From contig JASTWF010000034.1 of NCBI GenBank assembly GCA_030390025.1, forward strand, positions 2,170,001 to 2,234,000: a stretch of DNA of 64,000 nt. Direction: 5' to 3'. This DNA is from Squalus acanthias. Taxonomy: Eukaryota. The notes beneath the pieces were generated by a model that saw nothing but the letters and a program-made list of their open reading frames with translations, had not been told where the DNA came from and did no database searches. The position numbers and the translations under genes were made by a program. This document shows positions 2,384 through 59,405 of the stretch, piece after piece. The number at the start of each line of letters is the position of its first letter. Within the stretch, counting starts at the first letter, position 1.

Positions 2384-2459
2384 GCCTTCCCTTCTGTGAG
2401 TGTCTGGTGGTCTTTGTGCTGGGGGCAGCGTGCTGACTGTGTGAGGTGACACAGTGAAG

Positions 2460-2545
2460 GGAGCTCCTTATTTAGAGCAGAGGGAAATCCCCGAGTGACA
2501 TCATTAGGCCTCACTGTAACTGGCATTAATTACAGTCATTGAACA
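2460..2545 (-). promoter_or_regulatory. Putative promoter of GPR139-like copy 1
   Basis: Minus strand TGACTGTAATTAATGCCAGT ... GGGGATTTCCCTC ... CTAAATAAGG, collinear with motifs upstream of copies 2 and 3. Confidence 0.6.
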
Positions 2546-2574
2546 ATCAGACTCATTGAACCATTGTCACCACA

Positions 2575-4380
2575 GCACTTTACTCAACTACCTCCTCTTT
2601 CACTATGACTTTGGCAGCAGCTTCTTCCTTGCTAAAGACAGATGCAAAGTATTCATTTACTATCTCAGCCATGCCCTCTGCCTCCATTCGTATGTCTCCT
2701 TTTTGGCCCTTAATCGGCCGCACCCCTCCTCTTACTGCCCATTTAGTATTTATATGCCAAAAGAAGACTTTTGGATTCCATTTTATGTTAGCTGCCAATC
2801 TATTCTAATACTCTCTCTTTGCCCCTCTTATTTCCTTTTTCACTTCCTCCCTGAACTTTCTATATTCAGCCTGGTTCTCACTTGTATTCTGAACTTGACA
2901 TCTGTCATACGCCCCATTTCTCTGCTTCCTCTTACTCTCTATCTTCCACTATCTCTTTCGTCATCCAGGGAGCTCTGGCTTTGGTTGCCCTACCTTTCCC
3001 CCTCGTGGGAATGTACCTCGATTGTACCTGAATCATCTCTTCTTTAAAGGCAGCCCATTGTTCAATGAGAGTTTTGCCTGCCAGTCTTTGATTCCTTTTA
3101 CCCAAGCCAGCTCGGTTCTCAACCAACTGAAATTGGCCCTCCCCCAATTAAGTATTTTTACTCTAGATTGCTCCTCGTCCTTTTCCATAGCTAATATAAA
3201 CCTCATGATACTACGATCACCGTTCCCTGAATGCTCCCTTACTGAAATCCTCTCCACTTCACCTACCTCATTCCCCAGAACCAGATCCAGCAATGCCTCC
3301 TTCCTCTTTGGGCCAGAAATGCCCCAATCAAGAAAGTTCTCTTGAACTCACTAAGGAAATTCTTTCCCCTCTCTTCCCTTTATACGATTACTATCTCAGT
3401 CTATATTAGGATAACTGAAGTCCCCCATTATTACCACTCTATGGGGTAAAAATTCAGTTGGTTGCGCCTCCCGTTAGCGCCTTAAGAGGGCGCTAATGGG
3501 GCGCAAAGCCGCTAACGCGCGGGCGCAGCGATGTTTGCGCCGCTCGAGAACTTAACTAGACATTGTGCGGCGGCGCTAAAGTTTACCGCTGCGACCGCCT
3601 GCGCGCGCAGATTGTGACGTCATTCCATGGTGCAACGCCCTTGTGGCGCCCCGGAGCGGAAATTGAGTGGCGCCCCCTGCCTTACCGCCTGACGCTAGCA
3701 ACGACAGGTTGAAGGGAGCGTTCTGCAGTCATGAAGGGAAAGGGGGAGCGCTATTTAAAGGTGACCGCTTCCTGCCTTTTATTGTTGGTGGCATTTTTGA
3801 ACTACGCATTCTGAGAGAGAGAGGGAGAGACTTCTGGAGAGATTCAACGTTGTGTGAAGGTGTTTTGGGTACTGAGCAGCACTTTGCAGGTTCATTTTGA
3901 TTTGCCATTCGTTGTATCGATTTAGCAGAGACTGTGGGAGCTGCACTCTGAGCTCTTTGCCTGGTACTCTCCATTGTTCTTTCCTGCACATTTGATGTGC
4001 AAGTCTCTCCAGGCCGAAATTCAAGGCGGCAATGAACAGGATGTGGATGGAAAGCAAGATTAACCATCCCCTTTAAGAGCTGGCCCGTGCCATTGTGTGT
4101 GTGTTCCATTGCTGACTGACATTACATGAGCTTCGCCAGTGCTCTGAGTTAGCGCCTCACTCCTTGGCCTTTGCGCCTTAAGACAGGTGTGCAGCGCCTG
4201 ATTTAGCGCTCCACTCACCTCCCGGGGCGGTAAAAGTGAAGTTTCCAGTCAGTGGCGATAATTAGCGCCAGGCGCTAGGGGCGCAACCTAATTTTTCCCC
4301 CTATATTTCTTCCACCTCTCTGCAATTTCCCTGCAAATTTGCTCCTCTGTTTCCTTCCCACTAGTTGGTGGCCTATAGAA
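2575..4380 (-). mobile_element. Degenerate CR1 ORF2 fragment (endonuclease to linker), split by the MITE at 3443-4301
   Basis: ORFs LDLVLGNE..., APWMTKEI, EIVNEYFASVF; CR1 sequence resumes after 4301 (YRPPTSG on the minus strand). Confidence 0.8.
3443..4301. mobile_element. PIF/Harbinger-type non-autonomous DNA transposon (MITE-like, 859 bp)
   Basis: TIRs GGGGTAAAAATT and (rc) GGGGGAAAAATT, subterminal GTTGCGCC..TAGCGCC, 3-bp TSD TAT at 3440-3442 and 4302-4304; removing it restores the CR1. Confidence 0.8.
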
Positions 4381-4429
4381 GCGTTTTACAGCCAATGATT
4401 CTGCCAGTCCCATTTGCAACATTTAACCT

Positions 4430-4672
4430 CTGCTGCCTTCCACCCTATCACAGACCAACTCTTTTGTTCATTCCTCCCCCCACCCCCCCTTACCCTGCCC
4501 CTACACCTGCTTACAATCTGTTACATCTCTAACTTTTTCCAGTTCTGCCGAAGGGTCACAGACCTGAAACTTTAACTCTGTTTCTCTCTCCACGGATGCT
4601 GCCTGACCTGCTGAGTGTTTCCAGCATTTTTTGTTGTTATTTCAGATTTCCAGCATCCGCAGTATTTTGCTA
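4430..4672 (+). mobile_element. Penelope-like element terminal repeat (degenerate hammerhead motif)
   Basis: AGTTCTGCCGAAGGGTCACAGACCTGAAAC...GATGCTGCCTGACCTGCTGAG; homologous to 40486-40690 and 41540-41640. Confidence 0.6.
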
Positions 4673-4689
4673 TTGTAATGTTTAAGATA

Positions 4690-5123
4690 AAAGAGAAAGA
4701 AAGACTTTCACGACCACCGGACGTCTCGAAGCGTTTTACAGCCAATGAATACTTTTGGAGTGCAGTCACTGTTGTCAGGTGAGAAACGCGGCAGCCAATT
4801 TGCGCACAGCAAGCTCCCACAAACAGCAATGTGATAATGACCAGATTAATAGTTTTTGTTGTGTTGATTGAGCGATAATTATTGGCCAGGACACCAGGGA
4901 TAACTTCACTACTCTTCATCGAACGAGTGCAACGGGATCTTTTACGTCCTGAGAGAGCAGTTTAACATCTCATCCGAAAGACGGCACCTCCAACAGTGCA
5001 GCACTCCCTCAGTACTGCACGGGAGTGTCAGCCTAGATTTATGGGCTCAAGTCCCTGGAGCTTGGGACCAACAACCTCTGACTGAGAGGCTAGTGTGCTA
5101 CCTACTGAGCCACAACTGACACT
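4690..5123 (-). mobile_element. tRNA-headed Deu-domain SINE (SacSINE1-like)
   Basis: Minus-strand head GTGGCTCAGTAGGTAGC (A-box-like), core GTACTGAGGGAGTGCTGCACTGTTGGAGGTGCCGTCTTTCGGATGAG, (CTTT)n tail; second copy at 9927-13085. Confidence 0.75.
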
Positions 5124-5129
5124 GTCAGA

Positions 5130-5440
5130 CGTGTTTACAGAGCATGTGTGTAAACGCACGAAGCGTGGTCAATAAGGTGGGTGATCTGCAGGCGCAAATA
5201 GCCACATAGTAAAATGATGTCGTGACGATAACAGAGTCCTGGCTCAAAAAGGGCAGGATTGGGTACTAAATATACCTGGATATAAGATGTTCGGGAAAGA
5301 TAGGGAAGGAAAGAAAGGAGGTGGATTAGCAGTATTGATTAAGGAGAATATTAGTGCTGGAGAAAGAGGATGTCTTCGAGGGGTCAAGGACAGAATCTGT
5401 TTGGTTAGAGTTAAGAAACAATAGAGGTACCATTACACTG
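5130..5440 (+). mobile_element. CR1 ORF2 5' (endonuclease N-terminal) fragment
   Basis: NARSVVNKVGDLQ...PGYKMFGKDREGKKGGGLAVLIKE...ESVWLELRN. Confidence 0.75.
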
Positions 5441-6195
5441 ATCCCACCTCAATCCAGGAATTTAATTCCCAGAGCCGCCTAGATTACACTGCTCCCACCT
5501 CAGTCCAGGAATGTCATTCCCAGGGCTGCCTAGAATACACTGCTCCCACCTCAGTCCAGGAATTTCATTCCCAGGGCTGCCTAGATTACACTGCTCCCAC
5601 CTCAATCCAGGAATTTCATTCCCAGGACAGCCTGGATTACACTGCTCCCACCTGAATCCAGGAATTTAATTCCCAGGGACAGCCTAGATTACACTGCTCC
5701 CACCTCAGTCCAGGAATTTCATTCCCAGGCACAGCCTAGATTACACTGCTCCCACCTCAATCCAAGAATTTCATTCCCAGGCACAGCCTAGATTACACTG
5801 CTCCCACCTCAGTCCAGGAATTTCATTCCCAGGCACAGCCTAGATTACACTGCTCCTGCCTCAATCCAGGAATTTCATTCCCAGGCACAGCCTAGATTAC
5901 ACTGCTCCCACCTCAATCCAGGAATTTCATTCCCAGGACAGCCCAGATTACACTGCTCCCACCTCAATCCAAGAATTTCATTCCCAGGCACAGCCTAGAT
6001 TACACTGCTCCCACCTCAGTCCAGGAATTTCATTCCCAGGCACAGCCTAGATTACACTGCTCCCACCTCAATCCAAGAATTTCATTCCCAGGCACAGCCT
6101 AGATTACACTGCTCCCACCTCAGTCCAGGAATTTCATTCCCAGGCACAGCCTAGATTACACTGCTCCCACCTCAGTTTAGGAATTTCATTCTCAG
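5433..6195. repeat. 51-52-bp minisatellite, ~14-15 copies
   Basis: Unit CTGCTCCCACCTCAGTCCAGGAATTTCATTCCCAGGCACAGCCTAGATTACA. Confidence 0.95.
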
Positions 6196-6433
6196 TCCAT
6201 TTCTCTTTTGCCTGAAAATGGAAGAAGAAGAAGAGTGACCTTACCCAGACAAACATGTCATCGTGTTTGACCGAGGGGAAGAATAATTAAAAGGAGCAGA
6301 GGATTAAAACGAAGGGATAAAAGGAAAAACACTTAAAATATTAACCAATGAGATAAATACGCTGTAAGCACCTCAATACTCCATGAAACTCTCTGGAAAC
6401 ATTAAATTCTCGCATAATCATACTCACAGAACA

Positions 6434-9765: not shown

Positions 9766-9926
9766 AATGAAGTTAGACAGAGTCAAGCGATCCCAACACA
9801 TCAAATTATTTCAAATCTTTCATATCCTGTTGTGAATGGTGATGAACAATTGAGCCGTTTCCCCATAGCCCTGAAAATTTCTCCTTTTCAAGTTTGTATC
9901 CAATTACCTTTTGGAAGTTATAGTTA

Positions 9927-13085: not shown

Positions 13086-13089
13086 TAGT

Positions 13090-15380
13090 GTGCAGTTTGT
13101 CACGTAGTGCAGCTTGGAACAGAGTGTTGAGCTGCGAGTTTTGTGAGTGAGGGAGTTCGGGGAGGGAGGTGTTCCTTCCTTTTTCTATCTTTGTCAGCTT
13201 CTAGGACCTGGTGAGTATTTCTACAGTCCATCGTTAAAGTAAAAGTAAGGTCTCTAGTTTAGAGTAAGTAGTGTTTAAAGGGAAGTAAGGTCCCTAGTAT
13301 ATTTAATATTCTTTAATTTAAAGGAAGTAAAGGGAGTAAATTAAGGACATGGCAGGGCAGCTCGGCAGCGTGGAGTGCTCCTCCTGTGCTTTTTGGGAAT
13401 TCAGGGACACTTTCAGTGTCCAGGGAGAAAACATGTGCAGGAAGTGTCTCCAGCTGCAGCTACTCGAAATCCGCGATTCGGAGCTGGAGCTGCGACAGGA
13501 GCCACTGTGGACCAGCCGCGAAGCTGAGATCTTCGTGGATAGCACGCTTAACGAGGTGGTCACACCGCAGGTAAAGAGTGCACAGGCAGACAGGAAATGG
13601 GTGACCGCCAGACAGTGTCAAAGAACTAGGATGGTACTGCAGGAGTCCCCTGCGTCCATCTCTCTCTCTAACAGATTTTCCGTTTTGGATACTGATGGGG
13701 GAGAAGGTTTCTCAGGGGAATGCAGCAAGAGCCAAGTCCGAGGCACTACGACTGGCTCAACTGCACAGGCGGGGAGTAAGAGTGGGAGAGCAATAGTGAG
13801 AGGGGATTCTATCGTAAGGGGAACAGATCGATGTTTCTGTGGACGCAGACGTGACTCCAGGATGGTATGTTGCCTCCGTGGTGCCAGGGTCAAGGAGGTC
13901 ACTGAACGGCTGCAGGGCATTCTGAAGCGGGAGGGCGAACTGTCAGAGGTCGTGGTTCACATTGGTACTAACGATATGGGTAGAAAGAGGGATGAGGTCC
14001 TGCAACAAGAATTTAGGGAGCTAGGTAGCAGATTAAAAAGCAGGACTCAAAGGTTATAATCTCTGGATTACTCTCGGTGCCACGTGCTAGTAAGTACAGG
14101 AATAGGAGGATAGAGCAGATGAATGCGTGGCTAAAGAGTTAGTGCAGGAGGGAGGGCTTTAGTTTCCTGGATCACTGGGTCTGCTTCTGGGGAAGGTGGG
14201 ACCTTTACAAGTCGGACGGTTTGCACCTGAACCGAAACGGGGCCAACATCCTTGCGGGGAGGTTTGCTAGTACTGTTGGGAGGGGGGTTTAAACTAACTT
14301 GGCAGGGGGATGGGATACGGAGTGGAGCTATAGTAGGGGTGATGCCCAGGCAAATATAGAGGAAAAAACAAGTCAGCCTGGAAGTCAGAGCAAATATGTA
14401 ACGGCACAAGGGTGTATGGCAAGGCTGGATGGCATTTATTTTAATTCAAGGAGTCTTGCGAGTAAGGCAGATGAATTGAAGGTGTTGATGAACACATGGG
14501 AGTATGATATTGTTGCTATCAGAGAGACATGGTTGAGGGAGGGGCAGGACTGGCAGCTCAATATTCCGGGGTAAAGAATATTCAGGCGAGACAGAGGGGG
14601 GTATAAAAGCGGAGGGGGTGTCGCAATATTAATCAAGGAGTCAATTACAGTACTGCTGTAAGGAGGGATGATATCTTAGCAGGTTTCTCTAAGGAGGCCA
14701 TATGGGTAGAACTTAAAAACAAAAAGTGGGCAAGCACCTTGCTGGGAGTGTACTATAGGGCCGCAAACAGTCATTGGGAGATAGAGGAACAGATATGTAG
14801 GCAAATCTCAGCGAAGTGTCGAAATAATAGGGTAATAATAGTAGGGGATTTCAACTTCCCCAATATTAACTGAGATAGTCAGAGTGTGAAAGGCTTAGAG
14901 GATGCGGAATTCTTAAAGTGGATCCAGGAGAGCTTTTTGAGCCAGCATGTAGAATGTTCGACAAGTGAGGGGGCGGTACTGGACCTAATTCTAGGGAATG
15001 TAGCTGGGCAACTGGTGGAAGTGTCATAAGGAGAGCATTTTGGTGACAGTGACCATAATTCATTGAGATTTAAGGTAGTCATGGAAAAGGACAAAGATTG
15101 ACGGGAAATAAAGATTCTAAATTGGGGGAATGTCGATTTTAATATGATAAGGCAGGACCCGGCCAAAGTGGATTGTATCAGCTACTTGTAGGAAAATCCA
15201 CATCAGAGCAGTGGCAGTCTTTCAGAAAGTAAATAGAGAGAGTATAACGCCAACATGTTCCCGTAAGGGTCAAGTGTGGGACCATCAAGCCCAGGGAAAC
15301 CTGTATGTCAAGTGATATACAAGAATGGATTAGGAAAAAAAGAGAGGTTTTTGGCAGATACAAAGGAGTAAAAACAGTGG
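13090..15380 (+). mobile_element. CR1 5' half: 5' UTR, ORF1 (zinc finger and SGNH esterase), start of ORF2; degenerate
   Basis: ORF 13349-14059 has CSSC..CRKC and GDS...HIGTND; then FNSRSL..K, ETWL, YRAAN, GDFN with stops and frameshifts. Confidence 0.88.
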
Positions 15381-17500
15381 AAATAGAGCTTTCCAGCTTA
15401 ATCCCACTTTCCAGCTTTTGGTCCGTAGCCCTGTAGGTGATGGCACTTCAAGTGCATATCCATGTACGTTTTAAACGTGTTGAGGGTTTCTGCCTCTACC
15501 ACCCTTTCAGGCCTTGAGTTTCAGTCCCGCAACGACCTCTGGGTGAAAAAAATTCTCATCTCCCGTCTAATCCTTCTACCATTTACTTTAAATCTATGCT
15601 CCTTGGTTATTGAACTCATGCCAGGGGAAATAGGTGCTTGCTATCCACTCTATCTAGGCCCCTCATAATTTTATACATCTCAATTAAATCTCCCCTCAGC
15701 CTCCTCTGTTCCAAAGTAAAGAACCCCAGACTATTCTCCAGTCTTGGCAACATCCACGTAAATCTCCTCTATAATGTCTCAAATGCAATCACATCTTTCC
15801 TGTAATGTTTTGACCAAAATTGTACGCAGTATTCTAGCTGTGGCCTAATTGGTGTTTTATACAGTTCTAGCATAAACTCCCTGTTTTTATATTATATGCT
15901 TCGGCTAATAATGCAATGTATCCCACATGCCTTTTTAACTTCCCTATCTACATGTCCTGCTAGTTTTAGAGATATGTGGAAATGTACTCCAAGGTCCCTC
16001 TGTTCCACTGCACCTCTCAGTGTCCTGCCATTTATTGTGTATTCCCTTTTTTTTGGCCCGCCACAAATGCATTACCTCACACTTCTCCGAAATGAAGTCC
16101 ATTTGCCACTGTTCTGCCCACCGGACCAGTCCATTGATATCTTCTTGCAGTCTACAGCTTTCTTCCTCACTATCAACCACACGGCCAAATTTTGTATCAT
16201 GTGCAAACTTCTTCATCATGGCCCCAACACTGAAGTCTAAATCATTAATATATACCACAATTAGCAGGGGACCTAGTACTGAGCCCTGTGGAACCTCGCT
16301 CGGAACAACCTTCCACTCACAAAGAACACCCGTTGACCATTACGACCTTTGCTTCCTGCCACTGAGCCAATTTTGGATCCAACTTGCCACCTTCCCTTGG
16401 ATCCAATGACCAACCTGTCATGTGGGACCTTGTCAAAGGCCTTTCTAATATCTATGTGGACTACATCAAATGCACTCCCCTCATCGACCGTCCTCATTAC
16501 CTCCTCAAAAAATTCAATCCAGTTAGTCAGACACGACCTTCCCTTAACATTACCATGCTGACTGCCCTTGATTAATCTGTGCCTTTCTAAATGCCGATTT
16601 ATACTGCCGCTCAGAATCTTTCAATATTTTATCCACTACCAAGGTTAGACTGACTGCCCTGCAATTACTCGGTCTATCCCTTTCTCCCTTTTTAAACAAT
16701 GGTACAACGTTAGCAGTCCTCCAGTCCTCTGGCATCACGCCTGTAGCCAGAGAGGATTGGAAAATGATGGTCTGAGCCTCCGCTATTTCCTCCTCTGCCT
16801 CTCGTAAAAGCCTGGGATACATTTCATCCGAGCCTCGTGATTTATCTAATTTCAAAGATGCTAAACCCCTTAATGTTTCCTCTCTCACTATGTTTGTCTC
16901 ATCTAATATTCCACACTCCTCCTCCTTCACTACAATATCTGCATCGTCTCACTCTTCTGTGAAGACAGACACAAAGTATTTATTAAGAACCATGTCCACG
17001 TCTTCCGCCTCTACACACAGATTCACTGTTTGGTCTACAATAGGCCAGACTCTTTCCTTAGTTATCCTCTTGCTCTTGATGTATGTATAAAACATCTTTG
17101 GGTTTTCCTTGCCAATATTTTTCCATGCCCTCTCTTTGCTTTCCTAATACTCCTTTTTAATTTCACCCCTGCACTTTCTATACCCCTCTAGGCTTTCTGT
17201 AGTATTGAGCTCTCGGTATCTGACAAAAGCTTCCCTTTTTGTTCCCTTATCCTACCCTGTATTCCCCTTGACAACTAGGGGACTCTAGATTTGGAAGTCC
17301 CATCCTTTATGTTTTTGGGAATATATTTGCTCTGAGCCCTCACTATCTCCTCGTTGAACGCTTCCCATGGCTCTGCACTGATTTCCAATTAAGAAGCTGT
17401 TTCCAGTCCACTTTTCCTAAATCACATCTCAGCTTAGTAAATTGGGCCTTTCCCCAATTGAAAACTTTTAAACCTGGTCTTTCTTTGTCCTTTTCCATTA
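15381..17500 (-). mobile_element. Degenerate CR1 ORF2 fragment
   Basis: KSRGSDEMYPRLL, DWRTANVVPLFKKG, KAFDKVPH, KFAHDTK in broken frames. Confidence 0.85.
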
Positions 17501-17865
17501 GGGGAGATTTAATATAGATATTCCAGATTGTAATGGGTTTTGATAGAGTAAGTAAGTCGGTTTCCAGAGGCAGAATGATGGGTAACCAGAGGAAACACAT
17601 TTAAAGTAATTGGCAGAAGAACCAGAGGAGAGATGAGAATTTTCTTTACGCAGTGACTTTTGATCTAGAATGCACTGACTGAGAACGTGGTGGAAGCAGA
17701 TTCAATAGTAAATTTCGAAAAGGAATGGGGTAATTAGATGAAGGGGAATTTTTATGGGGCTCTGATTAAAGAGTAGGACTGAATAAATAACTCTTTCAAA
17801 GAGACGGCATGGACACGATGGGCCGAATGCCCTCCGTCTGTGATGTACCGTTCAATGATTCTATT
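17500..17865 (+). mobile_element. CR1 3' end fragment
   Basis: RGDLI..., FFTQ-like remnants and a GGGCCGAATG...CTGT tail. Confidence 0.65.
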
Positions 17866-18074
17866 AGCAAGAGACAGAGAGAGAGAGAAGAGGGAGAGAG
17901 AAGAGGGGGAGAGAGAGAGAAAGGGAGAAATAGAGAAATAAAAATAGAGACTGAAAGACAGGGAGAGTTACAGAGGGAAATAAATTAACTTTAAAAGGGG
18001 AATTGGATAAATACCTGAAGGGGAACAATTTGCAGAACTATGGGAAAAGAGCAAGGGAATGGGACTAATTGAAG

Positions 18075-18565
18075 GGGTGAGGCCATGGTGGGATTTGAAC
18101 ATGAGGAGGAGAATATTTAAATCGAGTTGTTGCCGGATCGGCAGCCAATGTTGGTCAGTGAGCACAGGGGTGATGGGTGAACGGGACATGATGTGTGTTA
18201 GGATATGGGCAGCAGAGTTTTGGATGAGCTCTAGTTTACGGAGCCTTGTTACTGGGAGGCCGGCCAGGAGAGTATTGGAATAGTCGAGTCTGGATTTAAC
18301 AAAGGCACGGATGAGGGTTTATGCAGCGGAAGGGCTGAGGTGGAGCGGAGATGGGTGAAATTTTGGAAGTGGCAGTCGGCAGGACTGGTGATTCAGAAGA
18401 TATGAGTTCGGAACTCAGCTCAGGGACAAAGAGATCGCAGAGGTTGCAAACAGCCTGGTTCAGCCTCAGACATTGACCAGGGAGGGGGACTGAATCGGTA
18501 GATAGAGAATGGAGTTTGTGACTAGGACCGAAGACAATGGCTTCGCTCTTCCCAAGATTTAAATG
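18075..18565 (-). mobile_element. L2-type LINE RT C-terminal fragment
   Basis: RLDYSNTLLAGLP...IQNSAA...SPITPVL...HWLP on the minus strand; homologous to 51914-52420. Confidence 0.75.
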
Positions 18566-18808
18566 ACAAACAGTAATTCAGTGAAACGTGGTTTACGGAC
18601 CCAATATCTGGATATAGAGACTGACCAAGGACACTAACAGCAGCAAAGAATGAAGAATAGTAATACAGTTAGCAAAGGTTTGCAGAGTTAATAGCTGGAT
18701 AGAGAGATTTACCTGGAACAACAACTGCAGCAAGGAGGGGAGAGTAAATTACAAGAACAGTAATACAGTAAAACATGGTTAACAGAATAGCTGGATAGAG
18801 AGACTTAC

Positions 18809-19031
18809 CAGGCACACCAACAGCAGCTAGGAGTGGATAGTAAATGTATTGAATAATCAGAAGTGCCAAATAGATCCGATAGTCTAATGACATTGTATCA
18901 TAATTTTCTGAAAGATCGTCAACCTGCCAGCTGAAACTCCTGCCCATTGTTGTAGCATTCCAATCTACTGTTCTCAGATTCTGATCCATTGTTGTAACAT
19001 TCCAATCTACTGTTCTCAGATTCCGACCCAT
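18809..19031 (-). CDS. GPR139-like GPCR first coding exon (copy 2)
   Basis: MGRNLRTVDWNVTT-MDQNLRTVDWNATT-MGRSFSWQVDDLSENYDTMSLDYRIYLALLIIQYIYYPLLAAVGVP, 223 nt (phase 1), GTAAGT donor at 18808; TM1 motif and intron position match vertebrate GPR139. Confidence 0.8.
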
Positions 19032-19159
19032 TGTTTTAAAATTCCAATCTACTGTTCCATGATTCCGACTCCCTCTCTATGTGCCGAGCAGCGCGCTGAT
19101 CACTGTCAGTGCCGGAGGTGATGCTCTCACTGACACTATGGGATAACACATTGAAAGGA

Positions 19160-19312
19160 GTCCCTTTTTAATAGAAGAGGGAAACCCTGCACTGATACAA
19201 TTAGAGTCCATGGAGACTGACATTAATTACAGTCACTAAACAAACATCTTCAGTTAACCCGTGGAGACTGACATTAATTACAGTCACTGAACAAACAGCT
19301 TCAGTTAACCCC
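19160..19312 (-). promoter_or_regulatory. Putative promoter of GPR139-like copy 2
   Basis: TATTAAAAA (19165-19173), GGGTTTCCC (19179-19187), two 51-bp tandem units each containing GACTGTAATTAATGTCAGTC. Confidence 0.6.
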
Positions 19313-19339
19313 TTTCAATCCAACAGTTTTTGAACCACA

Positions 19340-19940
19340 GTAAAGTAGAGCATTTACCCGGTCCGGATGGGAAGTATGAGGGTTGCTGAAGGAAGGAATG
19401 GTGGAAATAGCGCAGGCTCTGAACAGAATATTTCAATCTCCTCGGATATGGGAGTGGTGCCAGAGGACAGGAGGGTTGCAAATGTTACACCCTTTTAAAA
19501 AAGGAGAGGGGGATAAACCCTGTAACTGCAGGCCAGTCAGACTAACGTCATTGGTGGGGGAAACTTCTAGAGGCCATATTCACAGAGAAAAGTATCTGTC
19601 TTTGGAAAAAACATGGATTAATAAATGACAACCAGCATGGATATGTTCACAGCAAAGTGTGTCTGACAAACTTGATTAAGTTCTTTGATGAAGTAACGGA
19701 GAGGGTTGATGAGGGTAGTGCGGTTGATGTTGTGTATATGGACATTCAAAATGCATTTGATGAAGTACAATTGAATAGACTTGATAGGACCAAAGGGACA
19801 GTGGCAGTGGGGATCTGACACTGGCTAAGGGACAGAAAACCGAAAGTAGTGGTGAACGGTTGTTGTACAGACTGGAGGGAAGTGTACAATTGTGTCCCCC
19901 AGTGGTCGCTATTCGGACCACTGCTCTTTTTGATATACAT
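19340..19940 (+). mobile_element. Degenerate CR1 RT fragment
   Basis: PGPDG, FKKG..DKPCNCRPV.LTS, VDVVYMDIQNAF remnants. Confidence 0.7.
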
Positions 19941-20019
19941 ACATATATACATACACATACACATACACATTTATATATACATACATTTACACACACACAG
20001 AGGAGGACATAGACAGACA

Positions 20020-21700
20020 GGTGAAATGAGCAAAGTGATAAAAGGTGCCGTCGACAGTGCTATTATGTGGCACTTACTCACTAATAACCTTCTCACTGAT
20101 GCCCAGTTTGAGTTCCGCCAGGACCACTCGGCTCCAGACCTCATTACAGCCTTGGTACAAACATGGACAAAGGAGCTGAATTTCAGTGGTGAGGTGAGAG
20201 TGACTGCCCTTGACATCAAGGCAGCATTGGACTAAGTGCGGCATCAAGGAGCCCCAGTAAAATTGTGTCAATGGAAAGCAGGGGGAAAACTCTCCACTGG
20301 CTCGAGTCATACCCGGCACAACGGAAGATGGTTGTGGTTTTTGGAGGTCAATCATCACAGCCCCAGGACATCGCTGCAGCAGTACATCAGGGCAGTGTCC
20401 TCGGCCCAACCATCTTCAGCTATTTCATCAATGACCTTCCCTCCATCCTATGGTCAGAAGTGGGAATGTTCGCTGATGAGTGCTCAGTATTCAGTTCTAT
20501 TCACAACTCCTCAGATAATGCAGCAGTCCATGCCCGCATGCAGCAAGACCTGGATGATATTCAGCCTTGGGTTGATAAGTGGCAAGTAATAATCACACCA
20601 AACAAGTGCCAGCCAATGACAATCTCCAACAAGCGCCACATCCCCTTGACATTCAATGGGATTACCATCGCCAAATCCGTCACCATCAGTATCCTGGGGG
20701 TTTCCATTGACCAGAACCTTAACTGGACCAGCCACATAAATACTGTGGCTAAAAGAGCAGGTCAAGGCTGGGTATTCTGCGGCGAGTTTCTCGCCTGCTG
20801 ACTCCCCAAATCCTTTCCACCATCTACAAGGCACAAGTCAGGAGTGTGATGGAATACTCTCCACTTGTCTGGATGAGTGCAGCTCCAACAACACTCAAGA
20901 AGCTCGACATCATCCAGGACAAAGCAGGCCACTTAATTGGTAGCCCATCCATCACCATAAAGGGGTAGAGAGGGTGGTAAAAAGGGAGGGGGTCGCGGTA
21001 TTGATTAAATAATCTATTACAGCTGTGAGGAGAGATGATATGTTGGAGGGATCATCAAACGAGGCCATATGGGTCGAATGGAAAAACAAAAAAGGGGCGA
21101 CCACACTGCTGGGAATGTACTATAGACCCCCAAACAGTGAGAGGGAGATAGAAGAGCAAATATGTCGACACATTTCTGAGAATTGCAAAAACCATAGGGC
21201 AGTATTAGTAGGAGATTTGAACTACCCCAATATTAACTGGGATAAGCTGGGTTCGTTTTCCTTGGAACAGAGGAGGCCTGCTCCTGCTCCTATTTCTTAT
21301 GTTATGTTCTTAAACATTCACTCCCTCCACCACCGGCGCACCGTGGCTGCAGTGTTTACCATCTACAAGATGCACTGCAGCAACTTGCCAAGGTTTCTTC
21401 GGCAGTACCTCCCAAACATGCAGCCTCTACCACCTAGAAGGACAAGGGCAGCAGGAGCATGGGAACACCATCACCTGTAACTTCCCCACCAAGTCACACA
21501 CCATCCTGACTTGGAAGTATATCACCATTCCTTCATTGTCGCTGGGTCAAAATCCTGCAACTCCCTCCATAACAGCACTGTGGGAGCGCCTTTCCATCAC
21601 CGACTGCAGCGGTTCACCACCACCTTCTCAAGTGCAACTAGGGATGGGCAATAAATGCAAGGCGTGCCAGCGATGACCACAGCCCATGAATGAATAAAAA
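20020..21700 (+). mobile_element. Family B non-LTR retrotransposon RT and 3' end, interrupted by CR1 pieces (~20960-21310)
   Basis: QFEFRQDHSA, ALDIKAA, QGSVLGPTIFSYFINDLP, MFADEC; resumes at TAAACATTCACTCC (21311) and ends ATGAATAAAAAA. Confidence 0.8.
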
Positions 21701-21759
21701 AGAAAAACAAAATAGATGGCAGATGAAATTCCATAAATTGCATAGATTTTAGAACGTTT

Positions 21760-23210
21760 GCCGCGGATTGGAATGTAGCAAATGTAACCCCAATATTTAA
21801 GAAAGGAGGGAGAGAGAAAACGGGGAACTACAGACCAGTTTTCCTGACATCAGTAGTAGGGAAAATGCTAAAATATATTAAGGACGTAGTAACAGGGCAC
21901 TTAGAAAATTATAATAGGATTGGGCACAGTCAACACGGATTTATGAAAGGGAAATCGTGTTTGACAAATTTGTTAGAGTTTTTTGAGGTTGTAACTAGCA
22001 GAACAGATAAGGGGGAGACAGTAGATGTGGTGGATTTGGATTTTCAGAAGTCATTCGATAAGGTGCCGCACAAGAGGTTATTAAACAAAATGGGATTGGG
22101 GGTAATATTCTAGCATGGGTTGAGGATTGGTTAACGGACAGAAAACAGAGAATAGCAATAAACGAGTCATTTTCGGTTTGGCAGGCTGTAACTAGTGGGG
22201 TACCGCAAGAATCAGTGTTTGGGCCACAGCTATTTACGATATATATCAATGATTTGGATGAGGGGACCAAATGCAATATATCCAAGTTTGCTGATGATAC
22301 AAAGCTGGGTGGGAATGTAAGTTGTGAGGAGGATGCAAGGAGGCTTCAAGGGGATATAGACAGGCTAAGTGAATGGGCAAGAACATGGCAAATGGAATAT
22401 AATGTGGAGAAATGTGCAGTTAGGAAAAATAGTAAAGCAAGGTATTTTTTAAATGTTGAGAGATTGGGAAATGTTGGTGTTCAGAGGGACCTGGGTGTCC
22501 TTGTACATGAATCACTGAAAGGTAACATGCAGGTACAGCAAACAATTAGGAAAGCAAATGGTATGTTGGCCTTTATTACAAGAGGATTTGAATATAAGAG
22601 TAAAGACGTCTTACTGCAATTATATAAGGCCCTGGTGAGACCACACCAGGAGTACTGTGTACAGTTTTGGTCTCCTTACCTAAGGAAGGATATAATTGCC
22701 AAAGAGGGAGTGCAACGAAGGTTCACCAGACTGGTTCCTGGGATGGGGGGATTGTCCTATGAGAACAGATTGAGTAGACTAGGCCTATGTTCTCTAGAGT
22801 TTAGAAGAATGAGAGGTAATCTCATGGAAATATATAACATTCTTAGAGGGCTTAACAGGGTAGATGCAGTGAGGATGTTTCCCCTGGCTCGGGAGTCTAG
22901 AACAAGGGGTCACAGTCTCAGCAAAAGACGTCGGCCAGTTAGGTCCGAGATGAGGAGAAAATTCTTCACTCAGAGGGTGGGGAATCTTTGCAATTCTCTA
23001 CCCCAGAGGGCTGTGGATGCTCAGTCGTTGAGTATATTCAAGACAGAGATTGAAAGATTTTTGAATATTAAGGGAATCAAGGGATATGGGGATAGTTCAG
23101 GAAAGTGGAGTTGAGGTAAAAGATCAGCCATGACCTTATTGAATGGCGGAGCAGGATCGAGGGGCCAAATGGCCTAATCCTGCTCCTATTTCATATGTTC
23201 CTATTTTCTA
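21760..23210 (+). mobile_element. 5'-truncated CR1 RT and 3' end
   Basis: ORFs 21865-22113 and 22215-23114 (KFADDTK, FFTQRV); CR1 3' UTR GAATGGCGGAGCAGG...CCTGCTCCTATTTC. Confidence 0.9.
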
Positions 23211-23418
23211 ACTCTCAATATCTATCCCTGTCTTTCTCTTCCCTCTGCCTCTCTCAGCCTGTCTGTCTCTCTCTGGCTGTCTGTGGCTCTCCCCCTGACT
23301 TTCTGTCTCTCTATTTCTATCTCTCAATCTGCCCACTCTCTTTGTTTCTATTTCTCTCTTTGTGTCTGTCTGACTCTCTCTATGGCCCACTCAATGACCC
23401 CCCCATGTCTCGCTCTAT

Positions 23419-26400
23419 GTCCTGACTGCTCCCTCCCCCCTAGTGTCCTGACTACTCCCCCTCCCCCCCTAATGTCCTGACTACTCCCCCCTCCCCCCTA
23501 GTGTCCTGACTACTCCCCCCCTCCCCCCTAGTGTCCTGACTACTCCCCCTCCCCCCCTAGTGTCCTAACTACTCCCCCCTCCCCCCCTAGTGTCCTGACT
23601 ACTCCACCCTCCCCCCTAGTGTCCTGACTACTCCACCCTCCCCCCTAGTGTCCTGACAACTCCCCCTCCCACCCTAGTGTCCTGACTACACCCCCCTCCC
23701 CCCTAGTGTCCTGACTACTCCCCCTCCCCCCCTGGTGTCCTGACTACTCCCCCTCCCCCCTAGTGTCCTGACAACTCCCCCCCTCCCCCCTAGTGTCCTG
23801 ACTACTCCCCCTCCCCCCCTAGTGTCCTGACTACTCCCCCTCCCCCCTAGTGTCCTGACTACTCCCCCTCCCCCCTAGTGTCCTGACTACTCCCCCTCCC
23901 CCCTAGTGTCCTGACTACTCCCCCTCCCCCCTAGTGTCCTGACTACTCCCCCTCCCCCCTAGTGTCCTGACTACTCCCCCTCCCCCTAGTGTCCTGACTA
24001 CTCCCCCTCCCCCCTAGTGTCCTGACTACTCCCCCTCCCCCCTAGTGTCCTGACTACTCCCCCTCCCCCCTAGTGTCCTGACTACTCCCCCCTCCCCCCT
24101 AGTGTCCTGACTACTCCCCCCTCCCCCCTAGTGTCCTGACTACTCCCCCTCCCCCCTAGTGTCCTGACTACTCCCCCTCCCCCCTAGTGTCCTGACTACT
24201 CCCCCTCCCCCCTAGTGTCCTGACTACTCCCCCTCCCCCCTAGTGTCCTGACTACTCCCCCTCCCCCCTAGTGTCCTGACTACTCCCCCTCCCCCCTAGT
24301 GTCCTGACTACTCCCCCTCCCCCCTAGTGTCCTGACTACTCCCCCCTCCCCCCTAGTGTCCTGACTACTCCCCCCTCCCCCCTAGTGTCCTGACTACTCC
24401 CCCTCCCCCCTAGTGTCCTGACTACTCCCCCTCCCCCCTAGTGTCCTGACTACTCCCCCTCCCCCCTAGTGTCCTGACTACTCCCCCCTCCCCCCTAGTG
24501 TCCTGACTACTCCCCCTCCCCCCTAGTGTCCTGACTACTCCCCCTCCCCCCTAGTGTCCTGACTACTCCCCCTCCCCCCTAGTGTCCTGACTACTCCCCC
24601 TCCCCCCTAGTGTCCTGACTACTCCCCCTCCCCCCTAGTGTCCTGACTACTCCCCCTCCCCCCTAGTGTCCTGACTACTCCCCCTCCCCCCTAGTGTCCT
24701 GACTACTCCCCCTCCCCCTAGTGTCCTGACTACTCCCCCCTCCCCCCTAGTGTCCTGACTACTCCCCCTCCCCCCTAGTGTCCTGACTACTCCCCCTCCC
24801 CCCTAGTGTCCTGACTACTCCCCCTCCCCCCTAGTGTCCTGACTACTCCCCCTCCCCCCTAGTGTCCTGACTACTCCCCCTCCCCCCTAGTGTCCTGACT
24901 ACTCCCCCTCCCCCCTAGTGTCCTGACTACTCCCCCCTCCCCCCTAGTGTCCTGACTACTCCCCCCTCCCCCCTAGTGTCCTGACTACTCCCCCTCCCCC
25001 CTAGTGTCCTGACTACTCCCCCTCCCCCCTAGTGTCCTGACTACTCCCCCTCCCCCCTAGTGTCCTGACTACTCCCCCTCCCCCCTAGTGTCCTGACTAC
25101 TCCCCCTCCCCCCTAGTGTCCTGACTACTCCCCCTCCCCCCTAGTGTCCTGACTACTCCCCCTCCCCCCTAGTGTCCTGACTACTCCCCCTCCCCCCTAG
25201 TGTCCTGACTACTCCCCCTCCCCCCTAGTGTCCTGACTACTCCCCCCTCCCCCCTAGTGTCCTGACTACTCCCCCCTCCCCCCTAGTGTCCTGACTACTC
25301 CCCCTCCCCCCCTAGTGTCCTGACTACTCCCCCTCCCCCCTAGTGTCCTGACTACTCCCCCCTCCCCCCTAGTGTCCTGACTACTCCCCCCTCCCCCCTA
25401 GTGTCCTGACTACTCCCCCCTCCCCCCTAGTGTCCTGACTACTCCCCCTCCCCCCTAGTGTCCTGACTACTCCCCCTCCCCCCTAGTGTCCTGACTACTC
25501 CCCCTCCCCCCCTAGTGTCCTGACTACTCCCCCTCCCCCTAGTGTCCTGACTACTCCCCCTCCCCCCTAGTGTCCTGACTACTCCCCCTCCCCCCTAGTG
25601 TCCTGACTACTCCCCCCTCCCCCCTAGTGTCCTGACTACTCCCCCTCCCCCCTAGTGTCCTGACTACTCCCCCTCCCCCTAGTGTCCTGACTACTCCCCC
25701 CTCCCCCCTAGTGTCCTGACTACTCCCCCTCCCCCCTAGTGTCCTGACTACTCCCCCCTCCCCCCTAGTGTCCTGACTACTCCCCCTCCCCCCTAGTGTC
25801 CTGACTACTCCCCCTCCCCCCTAGTGTCCTGACTACTCCCCCTCCCCCCCTAGTGTCCTGACTACTCCCCCTCCCCCCTAGTGTCCTGACTACTCCCCCT
25901 CCCCCCTAGTGTCCTGACTACTCCCCCTCCCCCCTAGTGTCCTGACTACTCCCCCTCCCCCCTAGTGTCCTGACTACTCCCCCTCCCCCCTAGTGTCCTG
26001 ACTACTCCCCCTCCCCCCTAGTGTCCTGACTACTCCCCCCTCCCCCCTAGTGTCCTGACTACTCCCCCTCCCCCCTAGTGTCCTGACTACTCCCCCCTCC
26101 CCCCTAGTGTCCTGACTACTCCCCCTCCCCCCTAGTGTCCTGACTACTCCCCCTCCCCCCTAGTGTCCTGACTACTCCCCCTCCCCCCTAGTGTCCTGAC
26201 TACTCCCCCCTCCCCCCTAGTGTCCTGACTACTCCCCCCTCCCCCCTAGTGTCCTGACTACTCCCCCTCCCCCTAGTGTCCTGACTACTCCCCCCTCCCC
26301 CCTAGTGTCCTGACTACTCCCCCCTCCCCCCTAGTGTCCTGACTACTCCCCCTCCCCCCTAGTGTCCTGACTACTCCCCCCTCCCCCCTAGTGTCCTGAC

Positions 26401-53858: not shown

Positions 53859-54096
53859 GATCTGGTTTTAAAATGGAAGTAGTAACCAATACACCCAGGA
53901 ACAAAGGCACTGTTGTTTGATAAATTGGACATGAAAACTAATAAAAAGATTGCAGCACAGGACCTTCTCCTGATCTTATTTATTATTTTATTCAGAACGT
54001 TGCAATTATTTGTACAAATTGACATATTAAGCATAGAGGGAAAATGAGCTACAGTTATTTAAATTTGACTTGAAAAATAATACACAAGTGCATTAG

Positions 54097-54872
54097 TTAA
54101 TGGTTAAATTGGGTATGATAATCAATACACAGGGTAAAACTGCCAGTTAATTGTTAAATTGGGTATGATAATCAATACACAGGGTGAAATTGTCACAGTT
54201 AATTGTTAAATTGGGTATGATAACCAATACACAGGGTGAAACTGTCACACTTAATTGTTAAATTGGGTATGATAACCAATACACAGGGTGAAACTCTCAC
54301 AGTTAATTGTTAAATTGGGGATGATATCCAATACACAGGGTGAAACTGTCACAGTTAATTGTTAAATTGGGTATGATAACCAATACACAGGGTGAAACTG
54401 TCACAGTTAATTGCTAAATTGGGTATGATAACCAATACACAGGGTAAAACTGTCACAGTTAATTGTTAAATTGGGTATGGTAACCAATACACAGAGTAAA
54501 ACTGTCACAGTTAATTGTTAAATTGGGTATGATAACCAATACACAGTGTAAAACTGTCACAGTTAATTGTTAAATTGGGTATGATAACCAATACACAGTA
54601 AAACTGTCACAGTTAATTGTTAAATTGAGTATGATAACCAATACACAGTAAAACCGTCACAGTTAATTGTTAAATTGGGTATGATAACCAATACACAGTG
54701 TAAAACTGTCACAGTTAATTGTTAAATTGGGTATGATAACCAATACACAGGGTAAAACTGTCACAGTTAATTGCTAAATTGGGTATGATAACCAATACAC
54801 AGGGTAAAACTGCCGCAGTTAATTGTTAAATTGAGTATGATAGCCAATAAACAAGGGAGTAAAGTTAATTGT
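54097..54872. repeat. 52-bp AT-rich minisatellite, ~15 copies
   Basis: Unit GTTAATTGTTAAATTGGGTATGATAACCAATACACAGGGTGAAACTGTCACA. Confidence 0.95.
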
Positions 54873-54896
54873 TATTTCTTAAATAGGAATTAAGCA

Positions 54897-55163: not shown

Positions 55164-58100
55164 CATTGAGAGGGACATTGAGAGAGACATTGACTGAAAC
55201 ATAGAGCGAGACATTGGGAGGGTCATTGAGCGGGCCATAGAGCGAGTCAGACAGACACAGAGAGAAATAGAAACAATGAGAGTGGGCAGATTGAGAGATA
55301 GAAATAGAGAGACAGAAAGTCTGGGGGAGAGCCACAGACAGCCAGAGAGAGACAGACAGGCTGAGAGAGGCAGAGGGAAGAGAAAGACAGGGATAGATAT
55401 TGAGATTTAGAAAATAGGAACATATGAAATAGGAGCAGGAGTAGGCCATTCGGCCCATCGATCCTGCTCCGCCGTTCAATAAGGTCATGGCTGAACTTCT
55501 ACCTCAACAACACTTTCCTGAACTATCCCCATATCCCATGATTTCCTTAATATTCAAAAATCTTTCAATCTCTGTCTTGAATATACTCAACGACTGAGCA
55601 TTCACAGCCCTCTGGGGTAGAGAATTGCCAAGATTCCCCACCCTCCAAGTGAAGAATTTACTCCTCATCTCGGACCTAACTGGCCGACGTCTTTTGCTGA
55701 GACTGTGACCCCTTGTTCTAGACTCCCGAGCCAGGGGAAACATCCTCACTGCATCTACCCTGTTAAGCCCGCTAAGAATTTTATATATTTCCATGAGATT
55801 ACCTCTCATTCTTCTAAACTCTAGAGAACATAGGCCTAGTCTAATCAATCTGTTCTCATAGGACAATCCCCCCATCCCAGGAACCAGCCTGGTGAACCTT
55901 CGTTGCACTCCCTCTTTGGCAATTATATCCTTCCTTAGGTAAGGAGACCAACACTGTACACAGTACTCCTGGTGTGGTCTCACCAGGGCCCTATATAATT
56001 GCAGTAAGACGTCTTTACTCTTATATTCAAATCCTCTTGTAGTAAAGGCCAAGATACCATTTGCTTTCCTAATTATTTGCTGTACCTGCATGTTACCTTT
56101 CAGTGATTCATGTACAAGGACACCAAGGTCCCTTTGAACACCAACATTTCCCAATCTCTCAACATTTAAAAAATACCTTGCTTTACTATTTTTCCTAGCT
56201 GCACATTTCTCCACATTATATTCTATTTGCCATGTTCTTGCCCATTCACTTAGCCTGTCTATGTCCTCTTGAAACCTCCTTGCATCCTCCTCAGAACTTA
56301 CATTCCAACCCAGCTTTTTATCATCAGCAAACTTGGATATATTGCATTTGGTCCCCAAATCCAAATCATTGATATATATCGTAAATAGCTGTGGCCCAAA
56401 CACTGATTCTTGCGGTACCCCACTAGTTACAGTCTGCCAAACCGAAAATGACTCGTTTATTGCTATTCTCTGTTTTCTGTCTGTTAACCAATCCTCAACC
56501 CATGCTAGAATATTACCCCCATTTTGTTTAATAACCTCTTGTGCCGCACCTTATCGAATGACTTCTGAAAATCCAAATCTACCACATCTACTGTCTCCCC
56601 CTTATCTGTTCTGCTAGTTACAACCTCAAAAAACACTAGCAAATTTGTCAAACACGATTTCCCTTTCATAAATCCGTGTTGACAGTGCCCAATCCTATTA
56701 TAATTTCTAAGTGCCCTGTTACTACGTCGTTAATATATTTTAGCATTTTCCCTACTACTGATGTCAGGAAAACTGGTCTGTAGTTCCCCGTTTTCTCTCT
56801 CCCTCCTTTCTTAAATATTGGGGTTACATTTGCTACATTTCAATCCGCGGCAAACGTTCTAAAACCAATGCAATTTATGGAATTTCATCTGCCATCTATT
56901 TTTTTTTCTTTTTTATTCATTCATGGGCTGTGGTCATCGCTGGCACGCCTAGCATTTATTGCCCATCCCTAGTTGCACTTGAGAAGGTGGTGGTGAACCG
57001 CTACAGTCGGTGATGGGAAGGCGCTCCCACAGTGCTGTTATGGAGGGAGTTGCAGGATTTTGACCCAGCGACAATGAAGGAATGGTGATATACTTCCAAG
57101 TCAGGATGGTGTGTGACTTGGAGGGGAAGTTACAGGTGATGGTGTTCCCATGCTCTTGCTGCCATTGTCCTTCTAGGTGGTAGAGGCTGCATGTTTGGGA
57201 GGTACTGCCGAAGAAACCTTGGCAAGTTGCTGCAGTGCATCTTGTAGATAAATAGGAGCAGGAGTAGGCCTCCTCTGTTCCAAGGAAAACAAACCCAGCT
57301 TATCCCAGTTAATATTGGGGTAGTTCAAATCTCCTACTATTACTGCCCTATAGTTTTTGCACTTCTCAGAAATTTGTCGACATATTTGCTCTTCTATCTC
57401 CCTCTCACTGTTTGGGGGTCTTTAGTACACTCCCAGCAGTGTGGTCACCCCTTTTTTGTTTTTCCATTCCACCCATATGGCCTCGGTTGATGATCCCTCC
57501 AACATATCATCTCTCCTCACAGCTGTAATAGTTTCTTTAATCAATACCGCGACCCCCTCCCTTTTTACCACCCTCTCTACCCCTTTATGGTGATGGATGG
57601 GCTACCAATCGAATGTTTTGCTTTGTCCTGGATGATGTCGAGCTTCTTGAGTGTTGTTGGAGCTGCACTCATCCAGACAAGTGGAGAGTATTCCATCACA
57701 CTCCTGACTTGTGCCTTGTAGATGGTGGAAAGGATTTGGGGAGTCAGGAGGTGAGACACTCGCCGCAGAATACCCAGCCTTGACCTGCTCTTTTCGCCAC
57801 AGTATTTATGTGGCCGGTCCAGTTAAGGTTCTGGTCAATGGAAACCCCCAGGATACAGATGGTGACGGATTTGGCGCTGGTAATCCCATTGAATGTTAAG
57901 GGGATGTGGCTCTTGTTGGAGATTGTCATTGCCTGGCACTTGTTTCGTGTGATTATTACTTGCCACTTATCAACCCAAGGCTGAATGTCATCCAGGTCTT
58001 GCTGCATGCGGGCATGCATTGCTTCATTATCTGAGGAGTTGTGAATAGAACTGAATACTGAGCAATCATCAGCGAACATCCCCACTTCTGACCAAAGGAT

Positions 58101-59251
58101 GGAGGGAAGGTCATTGATGAAATAGCTGAAGATGGTTGGGCCGAGGACACTGCCCTGATGTACTGCTGCAGTGATGTCCTGGGGCTGTGATGATTGACCT
58201 CCAAAAACAGCAACCATCTTCCTTTGTGCCGGGTATGACTCGAGCCAGTGGAGAGTTTTCCCCCTGCTTTCCATTGACACAATTTTACTGGGGCTCCTTG
58301 ATGCCACACTCAGTTCAATGCTGCCTTTATGTCAAGGGCAGTCACTCTCACCTCACCTCTGGAATACAGCTCCTTTGTCCATGTTTGGACCAAGGCTGTA
58401 ATGAGGTCTGGAGCCGAGTGCTCCTGGCGGAACTCAAACTGGGCATCGGTGAGAAGGTTATTAGTGAGTAAGTGCCACATAATAGCACTGTCGACGGCAC
58501 CTTTCATCAATTTGCTCATTTCAGCAGTCTGTCTATGTCATCCTGAAGCCTACCTTATCCCGCTCTGTGTGTGCTTGTATATATGTATATGAATATATAT
58601 ATATGTCTATGTCTATATCATAATATATATCAAAAAGAGCAGTGGTCCGAATAGCGACCCCTGGGGGATACCACTGTACACTTCCCTCCAGTCTGAATAA
58701 CAACCGTTCACCACTACTCTCGGTTTTCTGTCCCTTAGCCAATGTCAGGTTCCCACTGCCACTGTCCCTTTGGTCCTAACAAGTCTATTCAATTGTACTT
58801 CATCAACTGCATTTTGAATGTCCATATACACAACATCAACCACACTACCCTCATCAACCATTTCCGTTACTTCATCAAAGAACTTAATCAAGTTTGTCAG
58901 ACACACTTTGCCGCTAACATATCCGTGCTGGTTGTCATTTATTAATCCAAGTTTTTTTCCAAAGACAGATACTTTTCGCTGTGAATATGGCCTCTAGAAG
59001 TTTCCCCACCACTGACGTTAGGCTGACTGGCCTGCAGTTACAGGGTTTATCCCCCTCTCCTTTTTTAAACAGTGTGTAACATTTGCAACCCTCCTGTCCG
59101 CTGGCACCATTCCCATATCCGAGGAGGATTGAAATATTCTGGCCAGAGCCTGCGCTATTTCCACCATTTCTTCCCTCAGCAAACCTCATACATCCATTCC
59201 GGACCGGGTAAATGTTTTACTTTACTGTGGTATAAAAAGTGTTGGATTGAA

Positions 59252-59405
59252 AGGGGTTAACTGAAGCTGTTTGTTTAGTGACTGTAATTAATGTCAGTCT
59301 CCACGGGTTAACTGAAGATGTTTGTTTAGTGACTGTAATTAATGTCAGTCTCCATGGACTCTGATAGTATCAGTGCAGGGTTTCCCTCTTCTATTAATAA
59401 GGGAC
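59252..59405 (+). promoter_or_regulatory. Putative promoter of GPR139-like copy 3
   Basis: Two 51-bp units with TGTTTGTTTAGTGACTGTAATTAATGTCAGTC; GGGTTTCCC (59378-59386); TATTAATAA (59392-59400). Confidence 0.6.

Follow-up and report, generated by a model that had tools for sequence, protein, structure and literature searches.

A conserved 120-bp block upstream of GPR139-like first exons in Squalus acanthias as a candidate shared promoter

The window analysed here is a stretch of 64,000 nt of DNA from the shark Squalus acanthias, in which there are three first exons of GPR139-like receptor genes, referred to as copies 1, 2, and 3. Upstream of each is a non-coding block of about 120 bp that carries a palindromic element with a homeodomain-type core, a TTTCCC site, and a TATA-like box. 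With a probability of roughly two in three, as judged from its sequence, this block is a compact TATA promoter that was copied with each duplication and is held by selection, and that is predicted to place the family under one shared cell-type programme. What was observed is the presence of the motifs and their order, the gapless conservation of the block, a non-coding pattern of substitution, and the spread of the block in other sharks.

An inverted segmental duplication of 8 kb, with arms that are 92–97% identical by blastn, has copy 2 in one arm and copy 3 in the other, and these two copies therefore amount to one observation, with only copy 1 being independent. As they are a duplicate pair, the informative comparison is that of copy 1 with copy 2 or 3.

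Motifs within the block

The sequence GACTGTAATTAATGYCAGT occurs exactly five times in the window, once at copy 1 (2519–2537, minus strand) and twice each at copy 2 (19216–19234 and 19267–19285, minus strand) and copy 3 (59280–59298 and 59331–59349, plus strand). With up to three mismatches permitted in the search, 0.03 matches would be expected, and five were reached in none of 100 shuffles. Matches to a pattern running from TTTCCCTC to the TATA-like box, itself made from the three copies, are present in the window at these three places only. The 20-mer at the element is a dyad centred on ATTAAT, with 8 of its 10 pairs symmetric in copies 2 and 3, against 7 in copy 1, and all five units have the TAATTA core, a homeodomain-type site.

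In the first-pass annotation of this DNA, it was claimed that copy 1 keeps the motifs in the order seen in copies 2 and 3, and this is borne out by the five exact occurrences and by the constant offsets, since the TTTCCCTC and TATA-like parts are the same distance downstream of the element in all three copies. The perfect GACTG and CAGTC arms described for copies 2 and 3 are likewise there, as is the tandem duplication of the element in a 51-bp unit.

The other labels that were given to parts of the block hold less evenly. Scoring made use of the consensus sequences GGGRNWYYCC, TATAWAWR, and YYYCARRRR. The first of these, for NF-kB, is matched at 10 of 10 positions in copy 1, perfectly on both strands, and at only 9 of 10 in copies 2 and 3, at the same offset, such that the NF-kB label suits copy 1 fully and the duplicate pair in part. 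The TATA-like box is at a constant offset of 61 in all three copies, where it matches 7 of 8 positions rather than the full consensus. The forkhead-like run is TGTTTGT in copies 2 and 3 and reads TGATTGT in copy 1, which leaves the forkhead label to the former two. An initiator-like BBCABW is at offset 92–97 in copies 1 and 2, with a match at 5 of 6 positions in copy 3.

Scans with consensus sequences for octamer, SOX, EBF, and forkhead sites identified no site common to all copies. The O/E (EBF) site YYYCARRRR has one mismatch in copies 2 and 3 and two in copy 1, at differing positions, and the analogy with olfactory receptor genes that had been drawn earlier therefore lacks the conserved O/E site, as far as this consensus goes. 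TAATTA suits many homeodomain factors, and for this reason a match to POU4/Brn3 is a lead only. In all copies, GTAATTAAT agrees with 8 of the 9 positions of ATAATTAAT, the optimum given for Brn3a/POU4F in passages of PMC2829025 and PMC3692409, with G here in place of the first A of the optimum, whereas the symmetric ACTG/CAGT arms of the shark dyad are outside the POU4 consensus.

Conservation of the block between copies

The block begins 26 bases ahead of the element and ends 95 bases past the element start. Between copies 1 and 2 it is identical at 85 of 122 positions with no gaps (z 12.8, reached in 0 of 300 shuffles), which is similar to the conservation of the exon end coding for the first transmembrane segment (TM1), where 35 of 48 positions are identical. 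The surroundings of these two copies are not convincingly alignable, with z of 1.6 for the 5' leader and 0.6 for the 150 bp upstream, and for the first 150 bp of the intron z is 1.7 for copy 1 against copy 2 and 2.4 against copy 3. The block is non-coding sequence that is more conserved than its flanks. Within it, the element is identical at 18 of 19 positions and the spacer at 13 of 28 (p 0.0006), a contrast that was chosen after the fact.

Remnants of long interspersed nuclear elements (LINEs) end 82 bases from the outermost motif at copy 1 and 98 bases from it at copy 2. These two remnants are from different parts of the LINE and in opposite orientations. That unrelated LINE remnants are so close upstream of both copies means that the conserved island is small.

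The block in other sharks

Four of 21 public sequencing runs, all four in the form of contigs, were compared with positions 18740–19370 at 80% likeness. Matching contigs numbered 829, 45, 50, and 606 in the four runs, which carry three organism labels; the runs giving 829 and 606 contigs are of genome size, and two of the four were guessed to be RNA, although none is recorded as RNA. One contig of 1042 bp, under another organism label, covers 19149–19370 gaplessly, differing at 32 letters, and extends into exon 1 and the intron. In the run designated X1, two long pieces are gapless over 19098–19276 and 19117–19276.

Two joined forms were also seen, in which 70 and 72 bases are skipped and 19 and 21 other letters are inserted, the net loss being exactly one 51-bp unit. 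The spacers of these forms are identical to that of copy 2 at 11 of 19 and 12 of 21 positions, with AATTG kept. As the spacers have been replaced at unchanged length, it would appear that the spacer letters turn over while the spacing holds, and that the number of units varies. A step back of 102 bases in run X16 hints at more than two units. Among the 40 variants listed, of 136, there are 12 substitutions in 19100–19340, none of them within the element.

In one of the 121 shark proteins fetched, the Heterodontus model P0044, the N-terminus is a read-through of the spacer, the TTTCCC site, and the TATA region (59% over 46 aa, E 3e-15). The start of this model at an ATG inside the block is likely to be a mis-annotation. 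Seven further proteins gave shorter matches, five of these to the 5' leader. Many gene models of the family have LINE-derived or leader-derived N-termini, and the block shows that some gene models start inside the candidate promoter. In metagenomes, at least 119 stretches carry the 14-base core, none of those listed aligning with the promoters over more than 25–37 bases, and these were read as chance.

The receptor family and its first exons

The hallmark of exon 1 in this family is an ectodomain, YYP..VGVP, and a phase-1 donor. Copies 2 and 3 match it strongly, having an in-frame ATG, 14-residue repeats bearing NxT, and the phase-1 donor. Copy 1 resembles the family weakly (best tblastn E 0.002), but shares the promoter block and the donor. 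A search with the copy 2 exon (19031–18809) gave 25 matches among 65 candidates, all of them shark 7tm_1 receptors (best E 1.7e-51), which are named "probable G-protein coupled receptor 139/142" and come from Pristiophorus, Heptranchias, and Heterodontus. With a full-length family member as the query, 2419 of 8000 scored candidates were at E<=1e-5, and all 120 of those listed are from sharks.

The nearest solved structure to the full family member is human GPR139 (E 6e-12). Because this match is only 48.9 bits, "GPR139-like" is to be taken as a label for a distant, expanded family. The database matches do not place the family with the olfactory receptors (ORs), V1R, V2R, or TAAR.

Repeats of 42 bp (14 aa), every one with an NxT motif for glycosylation, make up the ectodomain at 18943–19069 and 59493–59572, and among shark homologues their number ranges widely, from 1 to 8. 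The ectodomains are variable, copies 2 and 3 differing at 8 of 46 residues; positive selection between these two was not shown (pN 0.096, pS 0.146 over 46 codons). At the start of the intron, the exon end and donor are repeated twice more in degenerate form, with a period of about 87–96 bp (18560–18846 and 59670–59955). These are possible alternative donors, and similar steps back are present in contigs from other sharks.

In the literature searched, no description was found of a shark GPR139-like expansion or of its promoter. Extra fish groups of GPR139/142 ("GPR210") are named in PMC6504862, the portions of which that were available make no mention of sharks. There is no "GPR" in the portion of the main text of PMC11979771 that was accessible, no passage on a promoter or shark in that of PMC12208981, and no match in those files searched from the supplements of PMC10620051, PMC11406177, and PMC10115646.

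Function of the block

If the block is a promoter, the TATA-like box would set the start of transcription about 30–34 bases downstream, which would leave about 60–110 bases up to the coding frame. The start so placed would be near 2442–2447 in copy 1, 19139–19144 in copy 2, and 59421–59425 in copy 3. A homeodomain or POU-type factor would occupy the TAATTAATG dyad, some 85 bases upstream, and the TTTCCC site, some 45 bases upstream, would be taken by a second and less constant activator, for which a Rel/NFAT-like factor is one candidate. The rigid spacing would suggest that factors at fixed distances contact the basal machinery as one unit. All members of the family would then be co-regulated, being switched on by one cell-type programme, with the doubled 51-bp unit perhaps raising the input in copies 2 and 3.

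Several observations weigh against this. Full alignment was possible for no more than two independent copies. The element makes no significant peak within the block (p 0.20 for the best window of 19 bases, p 0.13 for the longest run), nor is the clustering of mismatches in the block significant (runs test p 0.48, contrast p 0.21). On the point raised in the first-pass annotation, whether the motif is better conserved than its neighbours, the block does exceed its flanks, but the element is not significantly above the rest of the block (p 0.13–0.48). The family-wide cis-element proposed there is accordingly retained as a conserved upstream block, but not as a named element that peaks within it, and with NF-kB and forkhead labels that fit some copies only. 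The promoters of copies 2 and 3 differ at 4 of 152 positions against 206 of 4002 in their flanks (p 0.11), and the lack of listed variants within the element, 0 of 12 with 40 of the 136 variants listed, has a chance probability of 0.13. The TTTCCC site varies, with its third C changed at 19179 in two contigs each of runs X1 and X16; in P0044 the read-through has Thr where the CCC of the window gives Pro, from which it would follow, as inferred from the protein, that the site is altered there. In the two guessed-RNA runs, contigs cover the element, the exon, and the intron, and extend upstream of the element.

The exons themselves also count against it. Copy 1 has no in-frame ATG before M-YYP (TM1) and two out-of-frame ATGs come first, so that it may be a pseudogene in which the promoter block has been retained. 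No exon for the TM1–TM7 body was found in the window, either by tblastn of the 25 proteins or with a hidden Markov model of 111 bodies (best E 1.3). The description of these loci as GPR139-like exons therefore stands for first exons, but does not extend to a 7TM body, and with every copy lacking a body exon within the window and copy 1 lacking such an ATG as well, none is shown as a working gene. Within the window there is 2.3 kb of DNA left downstream of copy 1 and 4.3 kb downstream of copy 3, and the body exons of these two may be beyond its ends. Copy 2 is followed by 16 kb without a body exon before the co-oriented copy 1 (2600–18800), and is either an orphan, an alternative first exon, or part of a gene whose long intron encloses copy 1. 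There was no spliced joint to a body exon among the 24 loose contig ends listed, of 244.

Alternative explanations

It might be that the block is an element for receptor choice, identical promoters competing for a limiting homeodomain complex such that one member is expressed per cell. This is consistent with a very large clustered G-protein coupled receptor (GPCR) family with variable ectodomains and a common homeodomain-type site. Enrichment of homeodomain, O/E, and TATA sites in OR promoters is reported in passages of PMC3247239, and common motifs are a prediction of the competition model for V1R set out in part of PMC1955453. A shared promoter is, however, equally expected from duplication and co-expression, there is no conserved O/E site by the consensus used, and the family matches lie outside the OR, V1R, V2R, and TAAR groups, which makes choice an unlikely explanation. 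If each cell did turn out to express a single member, receptor choice would have arisen here independently.

Under gene conversion, or a swapping of promoters among paralogues, the motifs would not each have been selected and would have been partly read into the block. The spread of conservation over the block, rather than a peak on the named motifs, would fit with this, as would a region rich in duplications and satellites, and conversion has been proposed for the unbroken homology of V1R promoters in a section of PMC1955453. Substitution at 30% of positions without an indel over 122 bp is nevertheless not expected of an old neutral tract. The spacer letters differ at constant length in two further forms, and the contrast between element and spacer, after the fact as it is, also argues against conversion, which on this evidence is quite improbable.

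An NF-kB-inducible immune promoter, with the receptors acting as inflammatory or leukocyte sensors, would account for the perfect kB consensus on both strands in copy 1 and for the near match that copies 2 and 3 have at that offset. The constant core is, however, TTTCCCTCT, which is readable by other factors, and the site is altered in some paralogues, as the contig variants and P0044 indicate, so this too is judged quite improbable. Neither this nor the choice of one receptor per cell conflicts with a promoter function.

In copies 1 and 2, a frame of 48–50 codons begins at the ATG inside TAATTAATG. A coding block was rejected, as the differences between these copies are divided 12/7/9 by codon position, with no third-position excess, and copy 3 has a frameshifting deletion of 2 bases; a phmmer search with the 48-aa frame against 1.84 billion representatives gave two repetitive and unrelated proteins and nothing else, and a word search gave none. 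A structured RNA was rejected on folding z of -0.5 to -1.1 against shuffles and on the lack of a match in Rfam, with 18700–19500 scanned. The start might be further upstream, with the block transcribed as a conserved 5' leader or as an upstream open reading frame from this ATG. The same frame enters the receptor in P0044, and of the guessed-RNA contigs that cover the element, one has the letters of copy 1 on both sides of it (2489–2518 and 2551–2569). Yet the coding and folding results just given are against a transcribed block, LINE DNA is within about 100 bp upstream, and the guessed-RNA contigs also cover the intron, so that they may be DNA. If they are transcripts, the start is upstream of the element and the predicted start is wrong; if they are DNA, they are uninformative. 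Transcription of the block is therefore considered very unlikely.

Comparison with known systems

The compact shared promoter proposed here has its closest likeness in the mouse V1R genes, where an island of upstream homology in an expanded GPCR family, conserved like coding sequence in some subfamilies, has been read as promoter, according to passages of Stewart and Lane 2007 (PMC1955453). The V1R islands described there are 500–1000 bp, limited to subfamilies, with starts mapped by rapid amplification of cDNA ends and with singular expression, whereas the shark block spans about 120 bp, is free of gaps between copies whose ectodomains cannot be aligned, and has a TATA-like box at a fixed offset from which the start is predicted only. 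Mammalian OR promoters also have a homeodomain-type site and a TATA-like box near the presumed start, and in the excerpts of PMC3247239 and PMC3247230 it is O/E sites with which the homeodomain sites are paired; in the shark block it is GGG(G/A)TTTCCC that is beside the homeodomain site.

Human GPR139/GPR142 (PDB 7vug, 9m42) and the fish GPR210 groups offer a further comparison, GPR139 being the nearest solved receptor and the one after which databases name the shark genes. The shark family differs in having many members with glycosylated 14-aa N-terminal repeats, and in a GPR139 match of only 49 bits.

That duplicated genes share a conserved promoter is in itself nothing unusual. In the clustered protocadherin and UGT1 loci, variable first exons have a conserved promoter element. 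The likeness is that there are repeated first exons here, each with its own conserved promoter, and that copies 1 and 2 point the same way without an intervening body exon; the difference is that the shark family members in the databases each have their own full 7TM body. It is a very remote idea that sharks have hundreds of GPR139-like genes in which a POU4/homeodomain promoter would bring about expression of one member per sensory cell, and in which first exons without bodies would be protocadherin-style cassettes on a shared 7TM exon.

For this large shark GPCR family, labelled GPR139, the 120-bp candidate promoter gives a direct handle. It could be used in one reporter to reveal the cell type, and to count and class the members of the family across shark genomes.

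Features of the window

Table 1. Positions in the window of the blocks, motifs, first exons, and bounding repeats.
Feature	Position	Strand	Basis
Copy 1, one unit of the dyad element, core TAATTAATG	2518..2537	-	motif search, dyad count
Copy 1 GGGGATTTCCC, perfect match to kB consensus	2482..2492	-	consensus scan
Copy 1 TATA-like box, 7/8	2469..2476	-	consensus scan
Copy 1 conserved block (predicted core promoter)	2442..2563	-	85/122 vs copy 2, gapless
Copy 1 predicted start	near 2442-2447	-	deduced solely from TATA spacing
Copy 1 first-exon frame IDWGEVF...MYYPLLTAVGIP to phase-1 GT donor	2293..2383	-	tblastn, frame reading
LINE reverse-transcriptase ORF remnant upstream of copy 1 block, same orientation as gene	2619..3200	-	tblastn with a LINE ORF from the window itself
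Copy 2, two 51-bp units, each TGTTTGTT and dyad element (19215-19234, 19266-19285)	19211..19311	-	
Copy 2 conserved block: element, spacer, AGGGTTTCCC, TATTAAAA	19139..19260	-	
Copy 2 AGGGTTTCCC, 9/10 kB	19179-19188	-	
Copy 2 TATTAAAA	19166-19173	-	
Copy 2 initiator-like CCCATA	near 19139	-	
Copy 2 exon 1 coding part: 14-aa NxT repeats, ectodomain, TM1 start, phase-1 donor	18809..19031	-	
Different LINE remnant upstream of copy 2 block, opposite orientation to gene	19383..19899	+	tblastn
Copy 3, two 51-bp units with dyad element (59280-59299, 59331-59350)	59254..59354	+	
Copy 3 conserved block: element, AGGGTTTCCC (59377-59386), TATTAATA (59392-59399)	59305..59425	+	
Copy 3 exon 1 coding part to phase-1 donor	59527..59707	+	
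Duplication arm with copy 2	15377..23420	.	blastn 92-97% to 55199-62969
Duplication arm with copy 3	55199..62969	.	blastn 92-97% to 15377-23420

The window is vertebrate DNA rich in LINE and satellite sequence, with one gap of 500 N (26906–27405). A G-rich 28-bp satellite at 23418–31589 is in opposite orientations on either side of this gap, and is either a true inverted array or the result of a scaffolding flip. Minisatellite arrays are present at 427–1511 (54-bp unit), 5432–6195 (52), 34114–40305 (25), 47292–47704 (47), 50624–51358 (47), and 54095–54853 (52). The arrays closest to the receptor copies have units of 52, 28, and 52 bp, at distances of 2.9–4.4 kb.

There are two long open LINE reverse-transcriptase frames, both on the minus strand, at 6536–9307 (923 aa) and 10214–12586 (790 aa). 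The former shares 98% identity at its 3' end with 53000–53761, which suggests, from the sequence, that it may have been active recently. Within the intron of copy 1, there is a short frame (2050–2260, minus strand) that resembles a Myb/SANT-type transposon protein, and upstream of copy 1 there are GC-rich stretches like terminal repeats at 3450–3750 and 4150–4290; together these are likely to be remnants of DNA transposons.

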